NCBI RefSeq assembly: GCF_024700885.2
Contig: NZ_CP117016.1
Strand: one strand, 5' to 3'
Length of the DNA stretch: 64,000 nucleotides
Origin: Escherichia coli
GTDB taxonomy: Bacteria > Pseudomonadota > Gammaproteobacteria > Enterobacterales > Enterobacteriaceae
Part shown: positions 833-38,555 of the stretch, in pieces
Layout: each line of letters starts with the position of its first letter
How positions within the stretch are numbered: position 1 is the first letter of the stretch
The notes under the pieces: model-generated
Seen by the model: the letters and a program-made list of their open reading frames with translations, nothing else
What the model was told of the DNA's origin: nothing
Database searches by the model: none
Position numbers and translations under genes: made by a program

Positions 833-1825
833 ATGAAAATAAAGAACATTCTACTCACCCTTTGCACCTCACTTCTGCTTACCAACGTTGCGGCACACGC
901 CAAAGAAGTCAAAATAGGTATGGCGATTGATGATCTCCGTCTTGAACGCTGGCAAAAAGATCGAGATATCTTTGTGAAAAAGGCAGAATCTCTCGGCGCG
1001 AAAGTATTTGTACAGTCTGCAAATGGCAATGAAGAAACACAAATGTCGCAGATTGAAAACATGATTAACCGGGGTGTCGATGTTCTTGTCATTATTCCGT
1101 ATAACGGTCAGGTATTAAGTAACGTTGTAAAAGAAGCCAAACAAGAAGGTATTAAAGTATTAGCTTACGACCGTATGATTAACGATGCGGATATCGATTT
1201 TTATATTTCTTTCGATAACGAAAAAGTCGGTGAATTGCAGGCAAAAGCCCTGGTCGATATTGTTCCGCAAGGTAATTACTTCCTGATGGGCGGCTCGCCG
1301 GTAGATAACAACGCCAAGCTGTTCCGCGCCGGGCAAATGAAAGTGTTAAAACCTTACGTTGATTCCGGAAAAATTAAAGTCGTTGGTGACCAATGGGTTG
1401 ATGGCTGGTTACCGGAAAACGCATTAAAAATTATGGAAAACGCGCTAACCGCCAATAACAACAAAATTGATGCTGTAGTTGCCTCAAACGATGCCACCGC
1501 AGGTGGGGCAATTCAGGCATTAAGTGCGCAAGGTTTATCAGGGAAAGTAGCAATTTCCGGCCAGGATGCGGATCTCGCAGGTATTAAACGTATTGCTGCC
1601 GGTACGCAAACTATGACGGTGTATAAACCTATTACATTGTTGGCAAATACTGCCGCAGAAATTGCCGTTGAGTTGGGCAATGGTCAGGAACCAAAAGCAG
1701 ATACCACACTGAATAATGGTCTGAAAGATGTTCCCTCCCGCCTGCTGACACCGATCGATGTGAATAAAAACAACATCAAAGATACGGTAGTTAAAGACGG
1801 ATTCCACAAAGAGAGCGAGCTGTAA
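833..1825 (+). CDS. xylF: D-xylose ABC transporter periplasmic binding protein
   Basis: ORF-track protein from internal Met 27 (MKIKNILLTLCTSLLLTNVAAHA..., signal peptide); 330 aa. Track start at 755 rejected as an upstream extension. Confidence 0.93.
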   Translation: MKIKNILLTLCTSLLLTNVAAHAKEVKIGMAIDDLRLERWQKDRDIFVKKAESLGAKVFVQSANGNEETQMSQIENMINRGVDVLVIIPYNGQVLSNVVKEAKQEGIKVLAYDRMINDADIDFYISFDNEKVGELQAKALVDIVPQGNYFLMGGSPVDNNAKLFRAGQMKVLKPYVDSGKIKVVGDQWVDGWLPENALKIMENALTANNNKIDAVVASNDATAGGAIQALSAQGLSGKVAISGQDADLAGIKRIAAGTQTMTVYKPITLLANTAAEIAVELGNGQEPKADTTLNNGLKDVPSRLLTPIDVNKNNIKDTVVKDGFHKESEL

Positions 1826-1830
1826 GCGTT

Positions 1831-1855
1831 ACGCCCCGGCGCAGAGCGGGGGCGT
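1831..1855 (+). terminator. GC-rich hairpin between xylF and xylG (possible partial terminator or attenuator)
   Basis: acgccccggcgcagagcgggggcgt forms an 8-9 bp GC stem directly after the xylF stop. Weak T tract. Confidence 0.35.
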
Positions 1856-1902
1856 GATTTCTCTCCATGCCGCGTGAATGAATTGGCTTAGGTGGAGTCG
1901 TT

Positions 1903-3444
1903 ATGCCTTATCTACTTGAAATGAAGAACATTACCAAAACCTTCGGCAGTGTGAAGGCGATTGATAACGTCAGCTTGCGGTTGAATGCTGGCGAAATCGT
2001 CTCACTCTGTGGGGAAAATGGGTCTGGTAAATCAACGCTGATGAAAGTGCTGTGTGGTATTTATCCCCATGGCTCCTACGAAGGCGAAATTATTTTTGCG
2101 GGAGAAGAGATTCAGGCGAGTCACATCCGCGATACCGAACGCAAAGGTATCGCCATCATTCACCAGGAATTGGCCCTGGTGAAAGAATTGACCGTGCTGG
2201 AAAATATCTTCCTGGGTAACGAAATAACCCACAATGGCATTATGGATTATGATCTGATGACGCTACGCTGTCAGAAGCTGCTCGCACAGGTCAGTTTATC
2301 CATTTCACCTGATACCCGCGTTGGCGATTTAGGGCTTGGGCAACAACAACTGGTTGAAATTGCCAAGGCACTTAATAAACAGGTGCGCTTGTTAATTCTC
2401 GATGAACCGACAGCCTCATTAACTGAGCAGGAAACGTCGGTTTTACTGGATATTATTCGCGATCTACAACAGCACGGTATCGCCTGTATTTATATTTCGC
2501 ACAAACTCAACGAAGTCAAAGCGATTTCCGATACGATTTGCGTTATTCGCGACGGTCAGCACATTGGTACGCATAATGCTGCCGGAATGAGTGAAGACGA
2601 TATTATCACCATGATGGTCGGACGAGAGTTAACCGCGCTTTACCCTAATGAACCACATACCACCGGAGATGAAATATTACGTATTGAACATCTGACGGCA
2701 TGGCATCCGGTTAATCGTCATATTAAACGAGTTAATGATGTCTCGTTTTCCCTGAAACGTGGCGAAATACTGGGTATTGCCGGACTCGTTGGTGCCGGAC
2801 GTACCGAGACCATTCAGTGCCTGTTTGGCGTGTGGCCCGGACAATGGGAAGGAAAAATTTATATTGATGGCAAACAGGTAGATATTCGTAACTGTCAGCA
2901 AGCCATCGCCCAGGGGATTGCGATGGTACCCGAAGACAGAAAGCGCGACGGCATCGTTCCGGTAATGGCAGTTGGTAAAAATATTACCCTCGCCGCACTC
3001 AATAAATTTACCGGCGGTATTAGCCAGCTTGATGACGCGGCAGAGCAAAAATGTATTCTGGAATCAATCCAGCAACTCAAAGTTAAAACGTCGTCCCCCG
3101 ACCTTGCTATTGGACGTTTGAGCGGCGGCAATCAGCAAAAAGCGATCCTCGCTCGCTGTCTGTTACTTAACCCGCGCATCCTCATTCTTGATGAACCTAC
3201 CAGGGGTATCGATATTGGCGCGAAATACGAGATCTACAAATTAATTAACCAACTCGTCCAGCAGGGTATTGCCGTTATTGTCATCTCTTCCGAATTACCT
3301 GAAGTGCTCGGCCTTAGCGATCGTGTACTGGTGATGCATGAAGGGAAACTAAAAGCCAACCTGATAAATCATAACCTGACTCAGGAGCAGGTGATGGAAG
3401 CCGCATTGAGGAGCGAACATCATGTCGAAAAGCAATCCGTCTGA
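1903..3444 (+). CDS. xylG: D-xylose ABC transporter ATP-binding protein
   Basis: 513 aa with two ABC cassettes (Walker [10 protein letters not shown] and a second GLVGAGRTE); position after xylF. Confidence 0.93.
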
Positions 3445-4603
3445 AGTGAAATTGGCCGTACCGACATCCGGTGGCTTTTCCGGGCTGAAGTCACTGAATT
3501 TGCAGGTCTTCGTGATGATTGCAGCTATCATCGCAATCATGCTGTTCTTTACCTGGACCACCGATGGTGCCTACTTAAGCGCTCGTAACGTCTCCAACCT
3601 GTTACGCCAGACCGCGATTACCGGCATCCTCGCGGTAGGAATGGTGTTCGTCATAATTTCTGCTGAAATTGACCTTTCCGTCGGCTCAATGATGGGGCTG
3701 TTAGGTGGCGTCGCGGCGATTTGTGACGTCTGGCTAGGCTGGCCTTTGCCACTTACCATCATTGTGACTTTGGTTCTGGGACTGCTTCTCGGTGCCTGGA
3801 ACGGATGGTGGGTCGCGTACCGTAAAGTCCCTTCATTTATTGTCACCCTCGCGGGCATGTTGGCATTTCGCGGCATACTCATTGGCATCACCAACGGCAC
3901 GACTGTATCCCCCACCAGCGCCGCGATGTCACAAATTGGGCAAAGCTATCTACCTGCCAGCACCGGCTTCATCATTGGCGCGCTTGGCTTAATGGCTTTT
4001 GTTGGCTGGCAATGGCGCGGAAGAATGCGCCGTCAGGCTTTGGGTTTGCAGTCTCCGGCCTCTACCGCAGTTGTCGGTCGCCAGTCATTAACGGCGATTA
4101 TCGTCTTAGGCGCAATCTGGCTGTTGAACGATTACCGTGGCGTTCCCACTCCTGTTCTGCTGCTGACGTTGCTGTTACTCGGCGGAATGTTTATGGCAAC
4201 GCGGACGGCATTTGGACGACGCATTTATGCCATCGGCGGCAATCTGGAAGCAGCACGGCTCTCCGGGATTAACGTTGAACGCACCAAACTTGCCGTGTTC
4301 GCAATTAACGGATTAATGGTAGCCATCGCCGGATTAATCCTCAGTTCTCGACTTGGCGCTGGTTCACCTTCTGCGGGGAATATCGCCGAGCTGGACGCAA
4401 TTGCAGCATGCGTGATTGGCGGCACCAGTCTGGCTGGCGGTGTCGGGAGCGTGGCTGGAGCGGTAATGGGGGCATTCATCATGGCTTCACTGGATAACGG
4501 CATGAGTATGATGGATGTACCGACCTTCTGGCAGTATATCGTTAAAGGTGCGATTCTGTTGCTGGCAGTATGGATGGACTCCGCAACCAAACGCCGTTCT
4601 TGA
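3422..4603 (+). CDS. xylH: D-xylose ABC transporter permease
   Basis: 393-aa hydrophobic polytopic protein; overlaps the xylG stop; operon position. Confidence 0.93.
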
Positions 4604-4680
4604 TTTTGATAAAAATTTTCTCAAAGCCGGTAATGTATTACCGGTTTTGAGTTTTTGCATGATTCAGCAGGAAAAGAACC

Positions 4681-5859
4681 ATGTTTACTAAACGTCACCG
4701 CATCACATTACTGTTCAATGCCAATAAAGCCTATGACCGGCAGGTAGTAGAAGGCGTAGGGGAATATTTACAGGCGTCACAATCGGAATGGGATATTTTC
4801 ATTGAAGAAGATTTCCGCGCCCGCATTGATAAAATCAAGGACTGGTTAGGAGATGGCGTCATTGCCGACTTCGACGACAAACAAATCGAGCAAGCGCTAG
4901 CTGATGTCGACGTCCCCATTGTTGGGGTTGGTGGCTCGTATCACCTTGCCGAAAGTTACCCACCCGTTCATTACATTGCCACCGATAACTATGCGCTGGT
5001 TGAAAGCGCATTTTTGCATTTAAAAGAGAAAGGCGTTAACCGCTTTGCTTTTTATGGTCTTCCGGAATCAAGCGGTAAACGTTGGGCCACTGAACGCGAA
5101 TATACATTTCGTCAGCTTGTCGCCGAAGAAAAGTATCGCGGAGTGGTTTATCAGGGGTTAGAAACCGCGCCAGAGAACTGGCAACACGCGCAAAATCGGC
5201 TGGCAGACTGGCTACAAACGCTGCCACCGCAAACCGGGATTATTGCCGTTACTGACGCCCGGGCGCGGCATATTCTGCAAGTATGTGAACATCTACACAT
5301 TCCCGTACCGGAAAAATTATGCGTGATTGGCATCGATAACGAAGAACTGACCCGCTATCTGTCGCGTGTCGCCCTTTCTTCGGTCGCTCAGGGCGCGCGG
5401 CAAATGGGCTATCAGGCGGCAAAACTGTTGCATCGATTATTAGATAAAGAAGAAATGCCGCTACAGCGGATTTTGGTCCCTCCAGTTCGCGTCATTGAAC
5501 GGCGCTCAACAGATTACCGCTCGCTGACCGATCCCGCCGTTATTCAGGCCATGCATTACATTCGTAATCACGCCTGTAAAGGGATTAAAGTGGATCAGGT
5601 ACTCGATGCGGTCGGGATCTCGCGCTCCAATCTTGAGAAGCGTTTTAAAGAAGAAGTGGGCGAAACCATCCATGCCATGATTCATGCCGAGAAGTTGGAG
5701 AAAGCGCGAAGTCTGCTGATTTCAACCACCTTGTCGATCAATGAGATATCGCAAATGTGCGGTTATCCATCGCTGCAATATTTCTACTCTGTTTTTAAAA
5801 AAGCATATGACACGACGCCAAAAGAGTATCGCGATGTAAATAGCGAGGTCATGTTGTAG
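4681..5859 (+). CDS. xylR: Xylose operon transcriptional activator (AraC family, periplasmic-binding-like N-domain)
   Basis: 392 aa; C-terminal AraC-type helix-turn-helix (…ISQMCGYPSLQYFYSVFKKAYDTTPKEYR); synteny. Confidence 0.93.
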   Translation: MFTKRHRITLLFNANKAYDRQVVEGVGEYLQASQSEWDIFIEEDFRARIDKIKDWLGDGVIADFDDKQIEQALADVDVPIVGVGGSYHLAESYPPVHYIATDNYALVESAFLHLKEKGVNRFAFYGLPESSGKRWATEREYTFRQLVAEEKYRGVVYQGLETAPENWQHAQNRLADWLQTLPPQTGIIAVTDARARHILQVCEHLHIPVPEKLCVIGIDNEELTRYLSRVALSSVAQGARQMGYQAAKLLHRLLDKEEMPLQRILVPPVRVIERRSTDYRSLTDPAVIQAMHYIRNHACKGIKVDQVLDAVGISRSNLEKRFKEEVGETIHAMIHAEKLEKARSLLISTTLSINEISQMCGYPSLQYFYSVFKKAYDTTPKEYRDVNSEVML

Positions 5860-5875
5860 CGATGATGAGAATTGT

Positions 5876-5955
5876 CGGCGTCGCATCAGGTAACTCAGCA
5901 CAACCACCTGATGCGAGCAAAAGCCTTATCCGACTGACAAGTCGGATAAGGCTCG
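5876..5955. repeat. REP-type palindromic units between convergent xylR and bax
   Basis: Two imperfect palindromes (gcatcagg…cctgatgc and agccttatccgac…gtcggataaggct) typical of enterobacterial REP elements. Confidence 0.55.
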
Positions 5956-5966
5956 AGGAAATGCAA

Positions 5967-6791
5967 TTACATATGCGCCGCGATTAACCGTTGGTTATCC
6001 TGGTACATTGCGAACAGGTAGTTGTTATAACTCTTCCCTTTGGTCGAGTAGCCCTTCAGCTTGTGAATCATCGCTGTGGCAGTCACTTCCTGATCCGCTT
6101 TACGCAGCTGTGCACGCGATTTACGGAACGAAGAGTAAGCCGGGTGCGTATTCAGGTTAGTGACATAGGCGCTCACCGATTCTTTGACAGAACTAAACTG
6201 TGAGTACCCTTTCACTTTACCCGGCGCATTGGTACAACGTCCTTTCATGCATTTCATGCCGAACAGATTGTTGTTGTTGCGCGCCAGCTTTGACGTTCCC
6301 CAACCGCTTTCTGCTGCAGCCATCGTCGCCACCATACTGGTAGGGATAATGTCTACGCGTTCAAGCAAGGTATTCCACGGGATTTTTCGCGTATTACCAG
6401 ACCACTTCACCTTGTAGCGTTTGGCGATGTCTTTCAGACGCGCACGCTCAGCAGGTGACCATTGGCCCTGATACTGTTTTGAAATCAGCCAGTTACGTTC
6501 CGCAGTAATGGCCGCATTTTGGCTGGTAATGTAAGGCATTACAGTCCGGAGAAACGCCTTTTTCCTTGGTGTTCCGGAAGGGTATTTTCGCAAATCAGGA
6601 AGTGAACTACTCTTTGCACTATTGCGAGAATACTCTTGTTTACTGCTTACCTGTTTATTACTAGCTTTAGTTAAGTGGGACTTTTGACTCGCTGTTGTTG
6701 TGTGCGTCTTCGCTAACACCTCACTCGAAAACACCAGAGTGAGTAACATAAGAATCATCGCCCCATATCGTCGTATGGGAGTCAAAATCAT
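5967..6791 (-). CDS. bax: Bax protein (putative glucosaminidase-like, signal peptide)
   Basis: 274-aa ORF on the minus strand with an N-terminal hydrophobic leader; position between xylR and malS. Confidence 0.8.
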   Translation of the reverse strand: MILTPIRRYGAMILMLLTLVFSSEVLAKTHTTTASQKSHLTKASNKQVSSKQEYSRNSAKSSSLPDLRKYPSGTPRKKAFLRTVMPYITSQNAAITAERNWLISKQYQGQWSPAERARLKDIAKRYKVKWSGNTRKIPWNTLLERVDIIPTSMVATMAAAESGWGTSKLARNNNNLFGMKCMKGRCTNAPGKVKGYSQFSSVKESVSAYVTNLNTHPAYSSFRKSRAQLRKADQEVTATAMIHKLKGYSTKGKSYNNYLFAMYQDNQRLIAAHM

Positions 6792-34367: not shown

Positions 34368-37300
34368 ATGAGCGGAAAACCGGCGGCGCGTCAGGGCGAC
34401 ATGACGCAGTATGGCGGTAGCATTGTTCAGGGTTCAGCCGGGGTACGTATTGGTGCCCCCACCGGCGTGGCCTGTTCGGTGTGCCCCGGCGGGGTGACGT
34501 CCGGCCATCCGGTCAATCCGCTGCTCGGTGCGAAGGTCCTTCCCGGCGAAACCGACCTTGCCCTGCCCGGCCCGCTGCCGTTCATCCTCTCCCGCACCTA
34601 CAGCAGTTACCGGACAAAAACGCCCGCGCCGGTGGGGAGCCTCGGCCCCGGCTGGAAAATGCCCGCGGATATCCGCTTACAGCTGCGCGATAACACACTG
34701 ATACTCAGTGATAACGGCGGCAGGAGCCTGTATTTTGAGCACCTGTTTCCCGGTGAGGACGGTTACAGCCGCAGCGAGTCACTCTGGCTGGTGCGCGGCG
34801 GCGTGGCGAAACTGGATGAAGGTCACCGGCTGGCCGCACTCTGGCAGGCACTGCCGGAAGAGCTTCGCCTGAGTCCGCATCGTTATCTGGCGACGAACAG
34901 TCCGCAGGGGCCGTGGTGGGTACTCGGCTGGTGTGAGCAGGTGCCGGAGGCGGATGAGGTGCTGCCCGCGCCGCTGCCGCCGTACCGGGTACTGACCGGG
35001 CTGGTGGACCGCTTCGGGCGCACACAGACGTTTCACCGTGAGGCTGGCGGCGAAATCACCGGCGTGACGGATGGCGCAGGCCGTCACTTCCGGCTGGTAC
35101 TGACCACGCAGGCGCAGCGGGCAGAAGAAGCCCGGCAGCAGGCCATTTCCGGCGGGACGGAACCGTCCGCTTTTCCTGATACCCTGCCGGGTTACACCGA
35201 ATATGGCCGGGACAACGGCATCCGTCTGTCTGCCGTGTGGCTGACACACGACCCGGAATATCCGGACAACCTGCCAGCCGCGCCGCTGGTACGCTATGGC
35301 TGGACGCCGCGTGGCGAACTGGCGGCGGTGTATGACCGCAGCAATACACAGGTGCGCAGCTTTACTTACGATGATAAATACCGGGGCCGGATGGTGGCGC
35401 ACCGTCACACGGGCCGACCGGAAATCCGTTACCGTTACGACAGTGACGGGCGGGTGACAGAACAGCTAAACCCGGCGGGCTTAAGCTACACGTATCAGTA
35501 TGAGAAAGACCGCATCACCATCACCGACAGCCTGGACCGCCGTGAAGTCCTGCACACGCAGGGCGAAGGCGGGCTGAAGCGGGTGGTGAAAAAGGAACAC
35601 GCGGACGGCAGCGTCATGCAGAGTCAGTTTGACGCGGTGGGCAGGCTTAAGGCACAGACGGATGCCGCAGGCCGGACGACTGAGTACAGCCCGGATGTGG
35701 TGACGGGACTCATCACGCGCATCACCACACCGGATGGCAGGGCATCGGCATTTTACTATAACCACCACAACCAGTTAACGTCAGCCACCGGGACTGACGG
35801 GCTGGAGTTGCGCCGGGAATATGATGAATCCGGCCGTCTGATTCAGGAAACCGCACACAACGGCGATATCACCCGCTACCGTTATGATAATCCACACAGT
35901 GACTTACCCTGCGCAACGGAAGATGCCACCGGCAGCCGGAAAACCATGACATGGAGCCGTTACGGTCAGTTGCTGACCGTCACTGACTGTTCCGGTTATG
36001 TAACCCGTTATGACCATGACCGTTTTGGTCAGGTGACGGCGGTGCACCGCGAGGAAGGGCTGAGTCAGTACCGCGCATACGACAGCCGTGGACAGTTAAT
36101 TGCGGTGAAAGACACGCAGGGCCATGAAACGCGGTATGAATACAACGCCGCCGGTGACCTGACCGCCGTCATTGCCCCGGACGGCAGCAGAAACGGGACA
36201 CAGTACGATGCGTGGGGAAAGGCCATCCGTACCACGCAGGGCGGTCTGACGCGCAGTATGGAATACGATGCTGCCGGACGGGTCATCCGCCTGACCAGTG
36301 AAAACGGCAGCCACACCACCTTCCGTTACGATGTACTTGACCGGCTGATACAGGAAACCGGCTTTGACGGCCGCACACAGCGTTATCACCACGACCTGAC
36401 CGGCAAACTTATCCGCAGCGAGGATGAGGGGCTGGTCACCCACTGGCACTATGACGAAGCAGACCGCATCACGCACCGCACCGTGAAGGGTGAACCGGCA
36501 GAGCAGTGGCAGTATGATGAACGCGGCTGGCTGACACAAATCAGCCATCTCAGCGAAGGCCACCGGGTGACGGTGCATTACGGGTATGATGAGAAAGGCC
36601 GCCTGACCGGTGAGCGCCAGACGGTGCATCACCCGCAGACGGAAGCACTGCTCTGGCAGCATGAAACCAGACACGCTTACAACGCGCAGGGACTGGCGAA
36701 CCGCTGTATACCGGACAGCCTGCCCGCCGTGGAATGGCTGACTTACGGCAGCGGCTGGCTGGCAGGCATGAAACTCGGCGACACACCGCTGGTGGAGTAT
36801 ACCCGCGACCGCCTGCACCGGGAAACGCTGCGCAGCTTCGGCCGTTATGAACTCACCACCGCTTATACCTCTGCCGGGCAGTTACAGAGCCAGCACCTGA
36901 ACAGCCTGCAGTATGACCGCGATTACACCTGGAACGACAACGGCGAACTCATCCGCATCAGCAGCCCGCGACAGACCCGGAGTTACAGCTACAGCGACTC
37001 CGGCAGGCTGACCGGCGTCCACACCACCACCTCAAATCTGGATATCCGCATCCCGTATGCCACGGACCCGGCAGGCAACCGCCTGCCCGACCCGGAGCTG
37101 CACCCGGACATCACCCTCAGCATGTGGCCGGATAACCGTATCGCCCGTGACGCGCACTATCTTTACCGGTATGACCGTCACGGCAGACTGACGGAGAAAA
37201 CCGACCTCATCCCGGAAGGGGTTATCCGCACGGACGATGAGCGGACTCACCAGTACCATTACGACAGTCAGCACCGGCTGGTGCACTACACGCGGACACA

Positions 37301-38555
37301 ATATGCAGAGCCGCTGGTCGAAAGTCGCTATCTTTACGACCCGCTGGGCCGCAGGGTGGCAAAACGGGTATGGCGGCGTGAACGGGACCTGACGGGCTGG
37401 ATGTCGCTGTCACGGAAACCGGAAGTGACCTGGTACGGCTGGGACGGCGACCGGCTGACCACGATACAGAACGACAGAACCCGCATCCAGACGGTTTATC
37501 AGCCGGGGAGCTTCACGCCACTCATCAGAGTTGAAACCGCCACCGGTGAGCTGGCGAAAACGCAGCGCCGCAGCCTGGCGGATGCGCTTCAGCAGTCCGG
37601 CGGCGAAGACGGTGGCAGTGTGGTGTTCCCGCCGGTGCTGGTGCAGATGCTCGACCGGCTGGAAAGTGAAATCCTGGCTGACCGGGTGAGTGAGGAAAGC
37701 CGCCGCTGGCTGGCATCGTGCGGCCTGACGGTGGAGCAGATACAAAACCAGATGGACCCGGTGTACACGCCGGCGCGAAAAATCCACCTGTACCACTGCG
37801 ACCATCGCGGCCTGCCGCTGGCGCTTGTCAGCACGGAAGGGGCAACAGAATGGTGCGCAGAATACGATGAATGGGGCAACCTGCTGAATGAAGAGAACCC
37901 GCACCAGCTGCAGCAGCTCATCCGCCTGCCGGGTCAGCAGTATGATGAGGAGTCAGGCCTGTATTACAACCGCCACCGCTATTATGACCCGCTGCAGGGG
38001 CGGTATATCACTCAGGATCCGATTGGGCTGAAGGGGGGATGGAATTTTTATCAGTATCCGTTAAATCCGGTTCAGTATATAGATTCAATGGGACTGGCAT
38101 CTAAATATGGACACTTAAATAATGGCGGATATGGAGCGAGACCCAACAAACCGCCTACGCCCGATCCAAGTAAGTTGCCAGACATAGCGAAACAATTAAG
38201 ACTGCCATATCCTATTGACCAGGCCAGTAGTGCGCCTAATGTTTTCAAAACATTCTTCAGAGCATTAAGTCCTTACGATTACACACTGTATTGCAGGAAG
38301 TGGGTAAAACCCAATCTGACTTGTACGCCGCAGGATGATCCCCAGTATCCAGGGATGGAGACAAAGACAGCAAGTGATTACCTGCCACAGACAACTTGGC
38401 CAACAACTCAATTACCACCAGGATATACTTGTGCAGAACCCTATTTATTCCCAGACATTAATAAACCCGATGGGCCAGCAACAGCAGGGATAGATGATTT
38501 GGGTGAAATTTTAGCTAAAATGAAACAGAGAACATCGAGAGGAATAAGAAAATGA
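34368..38555 (+). CDS. rhsA: Rhs-family polymorphic toxin (RhsA locus) with a divergent C-terminal toxin domain
   Basis: 1395 aa; N-terminal PAAR-like region, long YD-repeat core (…YRYD…, …YDxxGR…), the core-end motif …[31 protein letters not shown]…, then an AT-rich, compositionally distinct C-terminal tip of about 155 aa. Confidence 0.9.

Follow-up and report, generated by a model that had tools for sequence, protein, structure and literature searches.

A stable, conserved hairpin directly after xylF in the Escherichia coli xylFGHR operon, a candidate barrier that would favor the binding-protein message

The window, by which we mean the whole 64-kb stretch of DNA analyzed here, is Escherichia coli DNA with the xylFGHR genes (Table 1). 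The xylF reading frame closes with a TAA stop codon at 1823-1825 and the ATG of xylG follows at 1903, leaving a spacer of 77 nt. At the 5' end of that spacer is a hairpin, hairpin 1, which is the subject of this article. The junction itself is present as one copy in 5414 of 5426 complete E. coli genomes, where the flanking genes are annotated as xylF and xylG. The RefSeq annotation of K-12 has no feature inside the spacer, and a sequence scan found no promoter-like site in it. Inspection of the sequence shows two matches to RNWUU, the RNase E motif, on the 3' side of the hairpin's GC core, at 1856-1860 and 1880-1884. Since about one such match is expected by chance in 77 nt, we do not count them as evidence.

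Table 1. Features of the xyl locus and its surroundings, in window coordinates
Feature	Position	Strand	Basis
xylF CDS, periplasmic D-xylose-binding protein	833-1825	+	ORF list, translation, RefSeq annotation of identical E. coli DNA
Hairpin 1	1828-1858	+	RNA folding, rank among window hairpins, Escherichia comparison, compensatory changes in orthologs
Pyrimidine-rich tail UUCUCUCC, weak U-tract	1859-1866	+	Tail score, terminator scan, orthologs
Hairpin 2 (predicted, doubtful), CUCCAUGCCG with the xylG Shine-Dalgarno region GGUGGAG (1891-1897)	1863-1897	+	Minimum-free-energy fold of the spacer
xylG CDS, ABC transporter ATPase, first gene 3' of hairpin 1	1903-3444	+	ORF list, RefSeq annotation
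xylH	3422-4603		
Terminator-like hairpin between xylH and xylR	4620-4651	+	
xylR	4681-5859		
Near-perfect palindrome of 14-15 bp, AGCCTTATCCGACT...AGTCGGATAAGGCT	5921-5954		
bax, convergent with xylR	5967-6791	-	
Antisense promoter-like site inside xylG	2274-2246	-	
Antisense 3' end	~2118	-	Published MG1655 Term-seq
Rho termination region antisense to xylF	~1609	-	Published MG1655 Term-seq
GC-rich region	~34400-37600	both	

Two further observations belong to the neighborhood. The palindrome between the end of xylR and bax is predicted to fold on either strand, at about -24 kcal/mol, and is probably a bidirectional terminator. The second concerns the opposite strand at the junction. The promoter-like site inside xylG reads CTGACA-17-CATAAT (10 of 12 matches), and published Term-seq data for MG1655 place two antisense features here: a 3' end at K-12 position 3732416 and, opposite xylF, a Rho termination region at 3731907. 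The site and the Term-seq ends together suggest an antisense transcript across the xylF-xylG junction.

Hairpin 1 is real. In the minimum-free-energy fold it has a lower stem of 10 bp, with 1828-1837 paired with 1849-1858, and an apical region of 11 nt in which a 2-bp helix (1839-1840 with 1846-1847) closes a loop of 5 nt (1841-1845). Within the lower stem is a GC core of seven perfect pairs, ACGCCCC (1831-1837) with GGGGCGT (1849-1855). From the xylF stop codon it is 2 nt to the full stem and 5-6 nt to the GC core. A sequence-only reading of this DNA had placed a GC-rich stem 6 nt after the stop, in agreement with the core as we find it. The same reading gave the stem 8-9 bp, a count that can be reached only by allowing one bulged G.

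The hairpin folds at -23.1 kcal/mol in a context of 41 nt (z = -3.28), and none of 200 dinucleotide shuffles folded as well. Of the 4242 local hairpin units predicted in the window, counting both strands, it is the 16th by rank, and all 15 ahead of it are longer. Its G+C content is 0.74, against 0.44 for xylF. Rank, shuffles, and composition therefore put it beyond chance expectation. As a separate matter, one GC-rich region elsewhere in the window (Table 1) holds more than 12 local hairpins that rank among the most stable of all, at -20 to -27 kcal/mol.

Seven Escherichia sequences were compared: those of the window, K-12, a divergent Escherichia lineage, and four other strains. Substitutions among the seven are confined to two places, the apical part of hairpin 1 and the loop region of another, predicted hairpin (hairpin 2) farther along the spacer. 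The 10-bp lower stem is identical in six of them, and the seventh (L082, E. coli IAL7254) has a 4-nt deletion, TGAT, at the 3' base of the stem, which brings the GC core directly against TTCTCTCC. Even there the GC core is able to fold, at -19 kcal/mol. In another strain (L083, E. coli CUPF09) xylF is annotated as a pseudogene with an internal stop; the hairpin is intact.

How far does the hairpin extend beyond Escherichia? We took the xylF-xylG spacer from each of 80 loci coding for XylG relatives, one genome per species, and based the statistics on the 70 that are 45 nt or longer. In these, the distance from the xylF stop codon to the start of the strongest local hairpin has a median of 7 nt (interquartile range 3-10) and is within 12 nt in 57 of the 70. 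The median energy of this hairpin is -18 kcal/mol, with 63 of 70 at -14 kcal/mol or stronger. Judged against shuffled versions of themselves, 32 of the 70 spacers surpass 95% of their own shuffles; dinucleotide shuffles of GC-rich spacers often fold nearly equally well, and the median per-locus p is 0.09. The position of the hairpin is kept in more than 20 genera while the stem sequence varies by genus: ACGCCCC/GGGGCGU in Escherichia, GCCCUCUGA/UCAGAGGGC in Citrobacter, GCCCCUGC/GCGGGGGC in Enterobacter, and CGCCCGUG/CACGGGCG in Buttiauxella, with stems unrelated in sequence in Aeromonas and the Pasteurellaceae. Pectobacterium, Dickeya, Sodalis, and some others have a longer spacer with the hairpin placed deeper in it. 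At the other extreme, the spacers of Pantoea (loci L059, L061, L064-L068, and L070) and of two Serratia (L062 and L073) are only 23-29 nt long and hold a mini-hairpin at most, so the element is dispensable in some lineages.

Pantoea has an arrangement of its own. The last xylF codon and the stop codon (CUCUGA or CUCUAA) are predicted to pair with GGAG, the xylG Shine-Dalgarno sequence, and this pairing would enclose a mini-hairpin of 4-5 bp. In the predicted fold it looks like translational coupling in place of the large hairpin.

Has selection acted on the pairing itself? The usual tools were of little help. MAFFT with RNAalifold gave no consensus structure on whole spacers, because loop lengths differ, and on trimmed hairpins it misaligned the 3' arm. 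From five Escherichia sequences we built a covariance model, which recovered only Escherichia and weak matches in Klebsiella, Raoultella, and Siccibacter. Because standard alignment failed and the Escherichia model was too sequence-specific, we counted pairs with a script of our own, anchored on GCCC and GGGC and moving inward. A GCCC...GGGC core is common to 36 distinct Enterobacteriaceae sequences, in the first part of the spacer. Counting inward from these anchors, the inner pairs are canonical in 35/36, 31/36, 27/29, and 20/25 sequences, and each inner position shows three to five pair types out of C-G, G-C, U-A, A-U, and G-U. Sliding the partners by 1-3 nt makes pairing far rarer than in the true register. 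Taken over six positions, pairing is seen in 154 of 198 cells, where 2000 column shuffles gave 111 on average and never more than 130; this shuffle count is not a probability and overstates independence, as the orthologs are phylogenetically related. The loops are hypervariable, with seven different loop triplets in the Enterobacter group, for example. Changes on both sides of the stem combined with hypervariable loops are, as far as sequence comparison goes, the signature of a maintained stem.

The covariation also has a polarity. Against five A-C mismatches there are 23 G-U pairs. In 52 of 70 loci, the window included (-22.5 versus -16.8 kcal/mol), the hairpin folds more stably as the sense strand than as the reverse complement. 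The selected structure is therefore RNA of the mRNA strand and not a double-stranded DNA site.

Nor is the hairpin a member of a repeat family. With a 44-nt query over hairpin 1, each of 5414 genomes gives a single location at E <= 10. Since the element is single-copy, identity with REP or BIME repeats is rejected. Rfam covariance models give no match in or near 1826-1902, even at E <= 10. A published description of the xylF hairpin was not found by a literature search whose scope did not take in the older xyl sequence papers.

What might such a structure do? The best-known precedent is the structure between malE and malF (Newbury et al. 1987), which is proposed to block 3'-to-5' exonucleases after a downstream endonucleolytic cut and so to raise the amount of binding-protein mRNA relative to that for the membrane components (PMC5927463). 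The likeness to xylF is close. In both cases a stable spacer hairpin comes right after the first gene of an ABC operon, and that gene codes for the periplasmic binding protein. The two differ in make-up, the malE-malF structure consisting of multi-copy REP repeats whereas the xylF hairpin is unique in the genome and has a sequence of its own. They differ too in how they are known, for differential decay has been demonstrated for malEFG and we infer it for xylFGH.

A broader precedent comes from the study of differential operon decay by Dar and Sorek (2018, PMC5927463), in which protective 3' structures proved to be conserved among enterobacteria. In every E. coli ABC transporter operon examined in that work, the stabilized gene was that of the substrate-binding subunit (PMC5927463). 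The xyl operon lies outside the dataset because the cultures were grown in LB without xylose. The xylF hairpin resembles the structures of Dar and Sorek in being stable, in lying at the boundary after the favored gene, and in being conserved in related enterobacteria. Many of theirs are inside the downstream ORF, whereas the xylF hairpin is in the spacer. Two of the features by which such protective structures are recognized are found here: a stable RNA structure directly 3' of the favored cistron, and conservation in related species, seen in 63 of 70 spacers and in the compensatory changes. For a third, a longer half-life or higher level of the upstream segment, the evidence is indirect and consists of the EHEC fold changes given below.

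Closer to home are two other sugar transporters of K-12. The araF-araG spacer (L086 2071-2142, minus strand) and the mglB-mglA spacer (L087 3291-3353, minus strand) each carry a GC-rich hairpin after the binding-protein gene, the spacers folding at -23.7 and -20.2 kcal/mol, respectively. Both operons share with xyl the gene order binding protein, ATPase, permease, and their spacers are 60-69 nt long. Their hairpins, GC-rich and of 9-11 bp, are unrelated in sequence to that of xylF and start 11-17 nt after the stop codon, compared with 2-5 nt for xylF. Behind the mglB hairpin the tail is richer in U (UUAUUGUAU); the araF hairpin lacks such a tail. The design thus recurs in paralogous sugar ABC operons.

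From the conserved, stop-proximal hairpin, the enterobacterial ABC precedents, and the araF and mglB counterparts, we take an exonuclease barrier as the primary explanation. Hairpin 1 is probably an intercistronic 3' protective structure of the malE-malF type, blocking exonucleases and stabilizing xylF mRNA. By analogy, it would work as the malE-malF and Dar-Sorek structures and the araF and mglB counterparts do. It fits the malE-malF paradigm because the part that is conserved is the hairpin near the stop codon, not a U-tract.

The sequence of events may be pictured as follows. Transcription from the xylF promoter would read through into xylG, xylH, and xylR, and hairpin 1 would form in the xylFGH(R) mRNA immediately 3' of the xylF stop codon. 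An endonuclease, presumably RNase E, would cut in the spacer or in the less protected xylG or xylH segment. The 3'-to-5' exonucleases PNPase and RNase II would then degrade back to the GC-rich stem and stall, leaving a long-lived, xylF-only message of about 1.1 kb. With xylF mRNA in excess, the periplasmic binding protein would outnumber the ATPase, the permease, and the regulator. A minority of polymerases may in addition terminate at the weak UUCUCUCC tail in Escherichia, mainly those without a closely following ribosome. The decay pathway, the RNase E step, and the size of the effect on the xylF message are what we infer from the precedents.

Published expression data bear on the outcome of this scheme. 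RNA-seq of the EHEC strain EDL933 compared bovine digestive contents with M9-glucose (Table 3 of PMC6199705). The four log2 fold changes given for xylF were 4.83, 3.48, 5.77, and 2.54. Those of xylG were not significant, not significant, 2.08, and not significant, and those of xylH not significant, 2.03, 2.07, and not significant (PMC6199705). araF was likewise above araG (PMC6199705). These values, which are fold changes against a glucose baseline and not absolute coverage, are consistent with a step-down after xylF. For absolute xylF and xylG levels on xylose, the literature search gave fold changes only. The MG1655 Term-seq tables, from LB and glucose cultures with the operon off, list no sense-strand 3' end for xylF (PMC7815308), and they are uninformative on hairpin 1 because the xyl operon is uninduced under those conditions. 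The sequence-only reading had proposed that the binding-protein gene is expressed above the ATPase and permease genes; the comparative evidence and the EHEC fold changes fit this, and the proposal is partly supported overall.

The same step between xylF and xylG/xylH would be explained equally well if hairpin 1 and UUCUCUCC were mainly a partial Rho-independent terminator, such that fewer transcripts reach xylG, xylH, and xylR. This is the strongest of the alternatives, though we regard it as unlikely to be the main function. The window holds a terminator-like hairpin with which to compare, that between the stop codon of xylH and the start of xylR. Its 14-bp stem begins 16 nt past the stop codon, closes a 4-nt loop, and is followed by TTTTT. 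The terminator scan calls it, with a tail score of -4.71, and going by the predicted structure, fewer transcripts from the xylF promoter would continue into xylR.

In both elements the mRNA strand has a GC-containing stem-loop and then a stretch rich in pyrimidines or U. The xylF hairpin has the strong GC-rich stem-loop of a terminator (10 + 2 bp, -23.1 kcal/mol), with UUCUCUCC directly after the full stem. In place of the UUUUU run and the 4-nt loop, though, it has an interrupted tail and the 11-nt apical region. U occupies only four of the first eight tail bases, and the consensus terminator scan, which requires at least five T in eight, does not call it. The tail score of -3.52 is among the best 3% of tails after window hairpins of -10 kcal/mol or stronger, and falls short of the xylH-xylR terminator.

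The position of the hairpin also tells against efficient intrinsic termination. In E. coli, the tR2 terminator is almost fully repressed by a translating ribosome when it lies 8-9 bp from a stop codon, and it reaches full efficiency only beyond about 30 bp (PMC4824070). The stem of hairpin 1 lies 2 nt, and its GC core 5 nt, after the TAA, and efficient termination is disfavored because this is too close. By definition, the xylF hairpin is only partly an intrinsic terminator.

Orthologs are of the same tenor. Their tails score a median of -1.96, no different from the background of -1.83, and no more than 6 of 70 get to -3.4, so the idea of a conserved U-tract is rejected. A few others, such as Raoultella and locus L034, do score -3.4 or better, and U-rich sequence adjoins the stem in Klebsiella pneumoniae (AUUUUCAUCC) and in Rodentibacter (AUUUUAU); Enterobacter, by contrast, has GCAUCGAC. 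Expression of xylR reportedly depends on read-through from the xylF promoter, a result said to go back to Song and Park in 1997, and this too would sit poorly with a terminator after xylF. Of the two mechanisms in the sequence-only reading, RNA stability has come out the better supported, the hairpin being conserved and the U-tract not. Partial termination is weakened by the poor and unconserved U-tract, the missing scan call, and the nearness of the stop codon. A possible role for it is as an Escherichia-specific addition to the decay barrier.

A third explanation makes a virtue of that nearness. Because the stem begins only 2 nt after the xylF stop codon, a ribosome could gate hairpin 1, which would then be a translation-gated attenuator. 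With a ribosome close behind RNA polymerase, the hairpin would be prevented from forming and transcription would read through. With xylF translation slowed, hairpin 1 would form and either terminate transcription or expose the downstream RNA. Translational repression of xylF would in this way be passed on to xylG, xylH, and xylR. Spot 42, the catabolite-repression sRNA, is a conceivable source of such repression, since its reported target list includes xylF (PMC3295665). We find the attenuator improbable as an account of hairpin 1.

Somewhat less probable again is translational control, in which hairpin 1 and hairpin 2, along with base pairing of the xylF stop region to the xylG ribosome-binding site, would together lower or couple xylG translation without altering mRNA amounts. 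The idea has things to recommend it. The minimum-free-energy fold of the spacer contains hairpin 2, in which CUCCAUGCCG (1863-1872) pairs with GGUGGAG in the xylG Shine-Dalgarno region; in Pantoea the end of xylF is predicted to pair with the corresponding site; and there is precedent in protective structures that also block initiation at the next gene (discussed in PMC5927463). We set the accessibility of the Shine-Dalgarno sequence against controls in which the upstream spacer was shuffled. In E. coli, its probability of being unpaired is 0.30 in the native sequence versus 0.40 in the shuffled (p = 0.35), and over the 70 loci the means are 0.28 versus 0.26. That hairpin 2 occludes the xylG Shine-Dalgarno sequence is accordingly rejected, the effect being no stronger than in shuffled controls, and for that reason we do not count hairpin 2 as a feature. 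Translational control would also leave the covariation of hairpin 1 unexplained.

That hairpin 1 has no function of its own, as a chance palindrome, the relic of a repeat element, or a protein-bound palindrome in double-stranded DNA, is very unlikely: shuffled GC-rich spacers do fold well (median p 0.09) and some lineages lack the hairpin, but it is single-copy and hence neither REP nor BIME, more than 20 genera keep its position, with compensatory changes in the stem and loops that are hypervariable, the excess of G-U over A-C and the sense-strand bias oppose a DNA site, and E. coli substitutions avoid the lower stem, where the sole change is the 4-nt deletion in one strain.

To return to the exonuclease barrier, the xylF hairpin most likely keeps the xylF message above those of the transporter genes that follow it, a commonplace arrangement in the ABC-transporter operons of bacteria. 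It would help to set, from one promoter, a ratio of abundant XylF to scarce membrane, ATPase, and regulator proteins. That binding-protein ratio is relevant to the engineering of xylose uptake, and the hairpin to the annotation of RNA elements inside operons. No concept is changed by it. What the xylF hairpin offers is a clean addition to the malE-malF paradigm, single-copy and supported by covariation.
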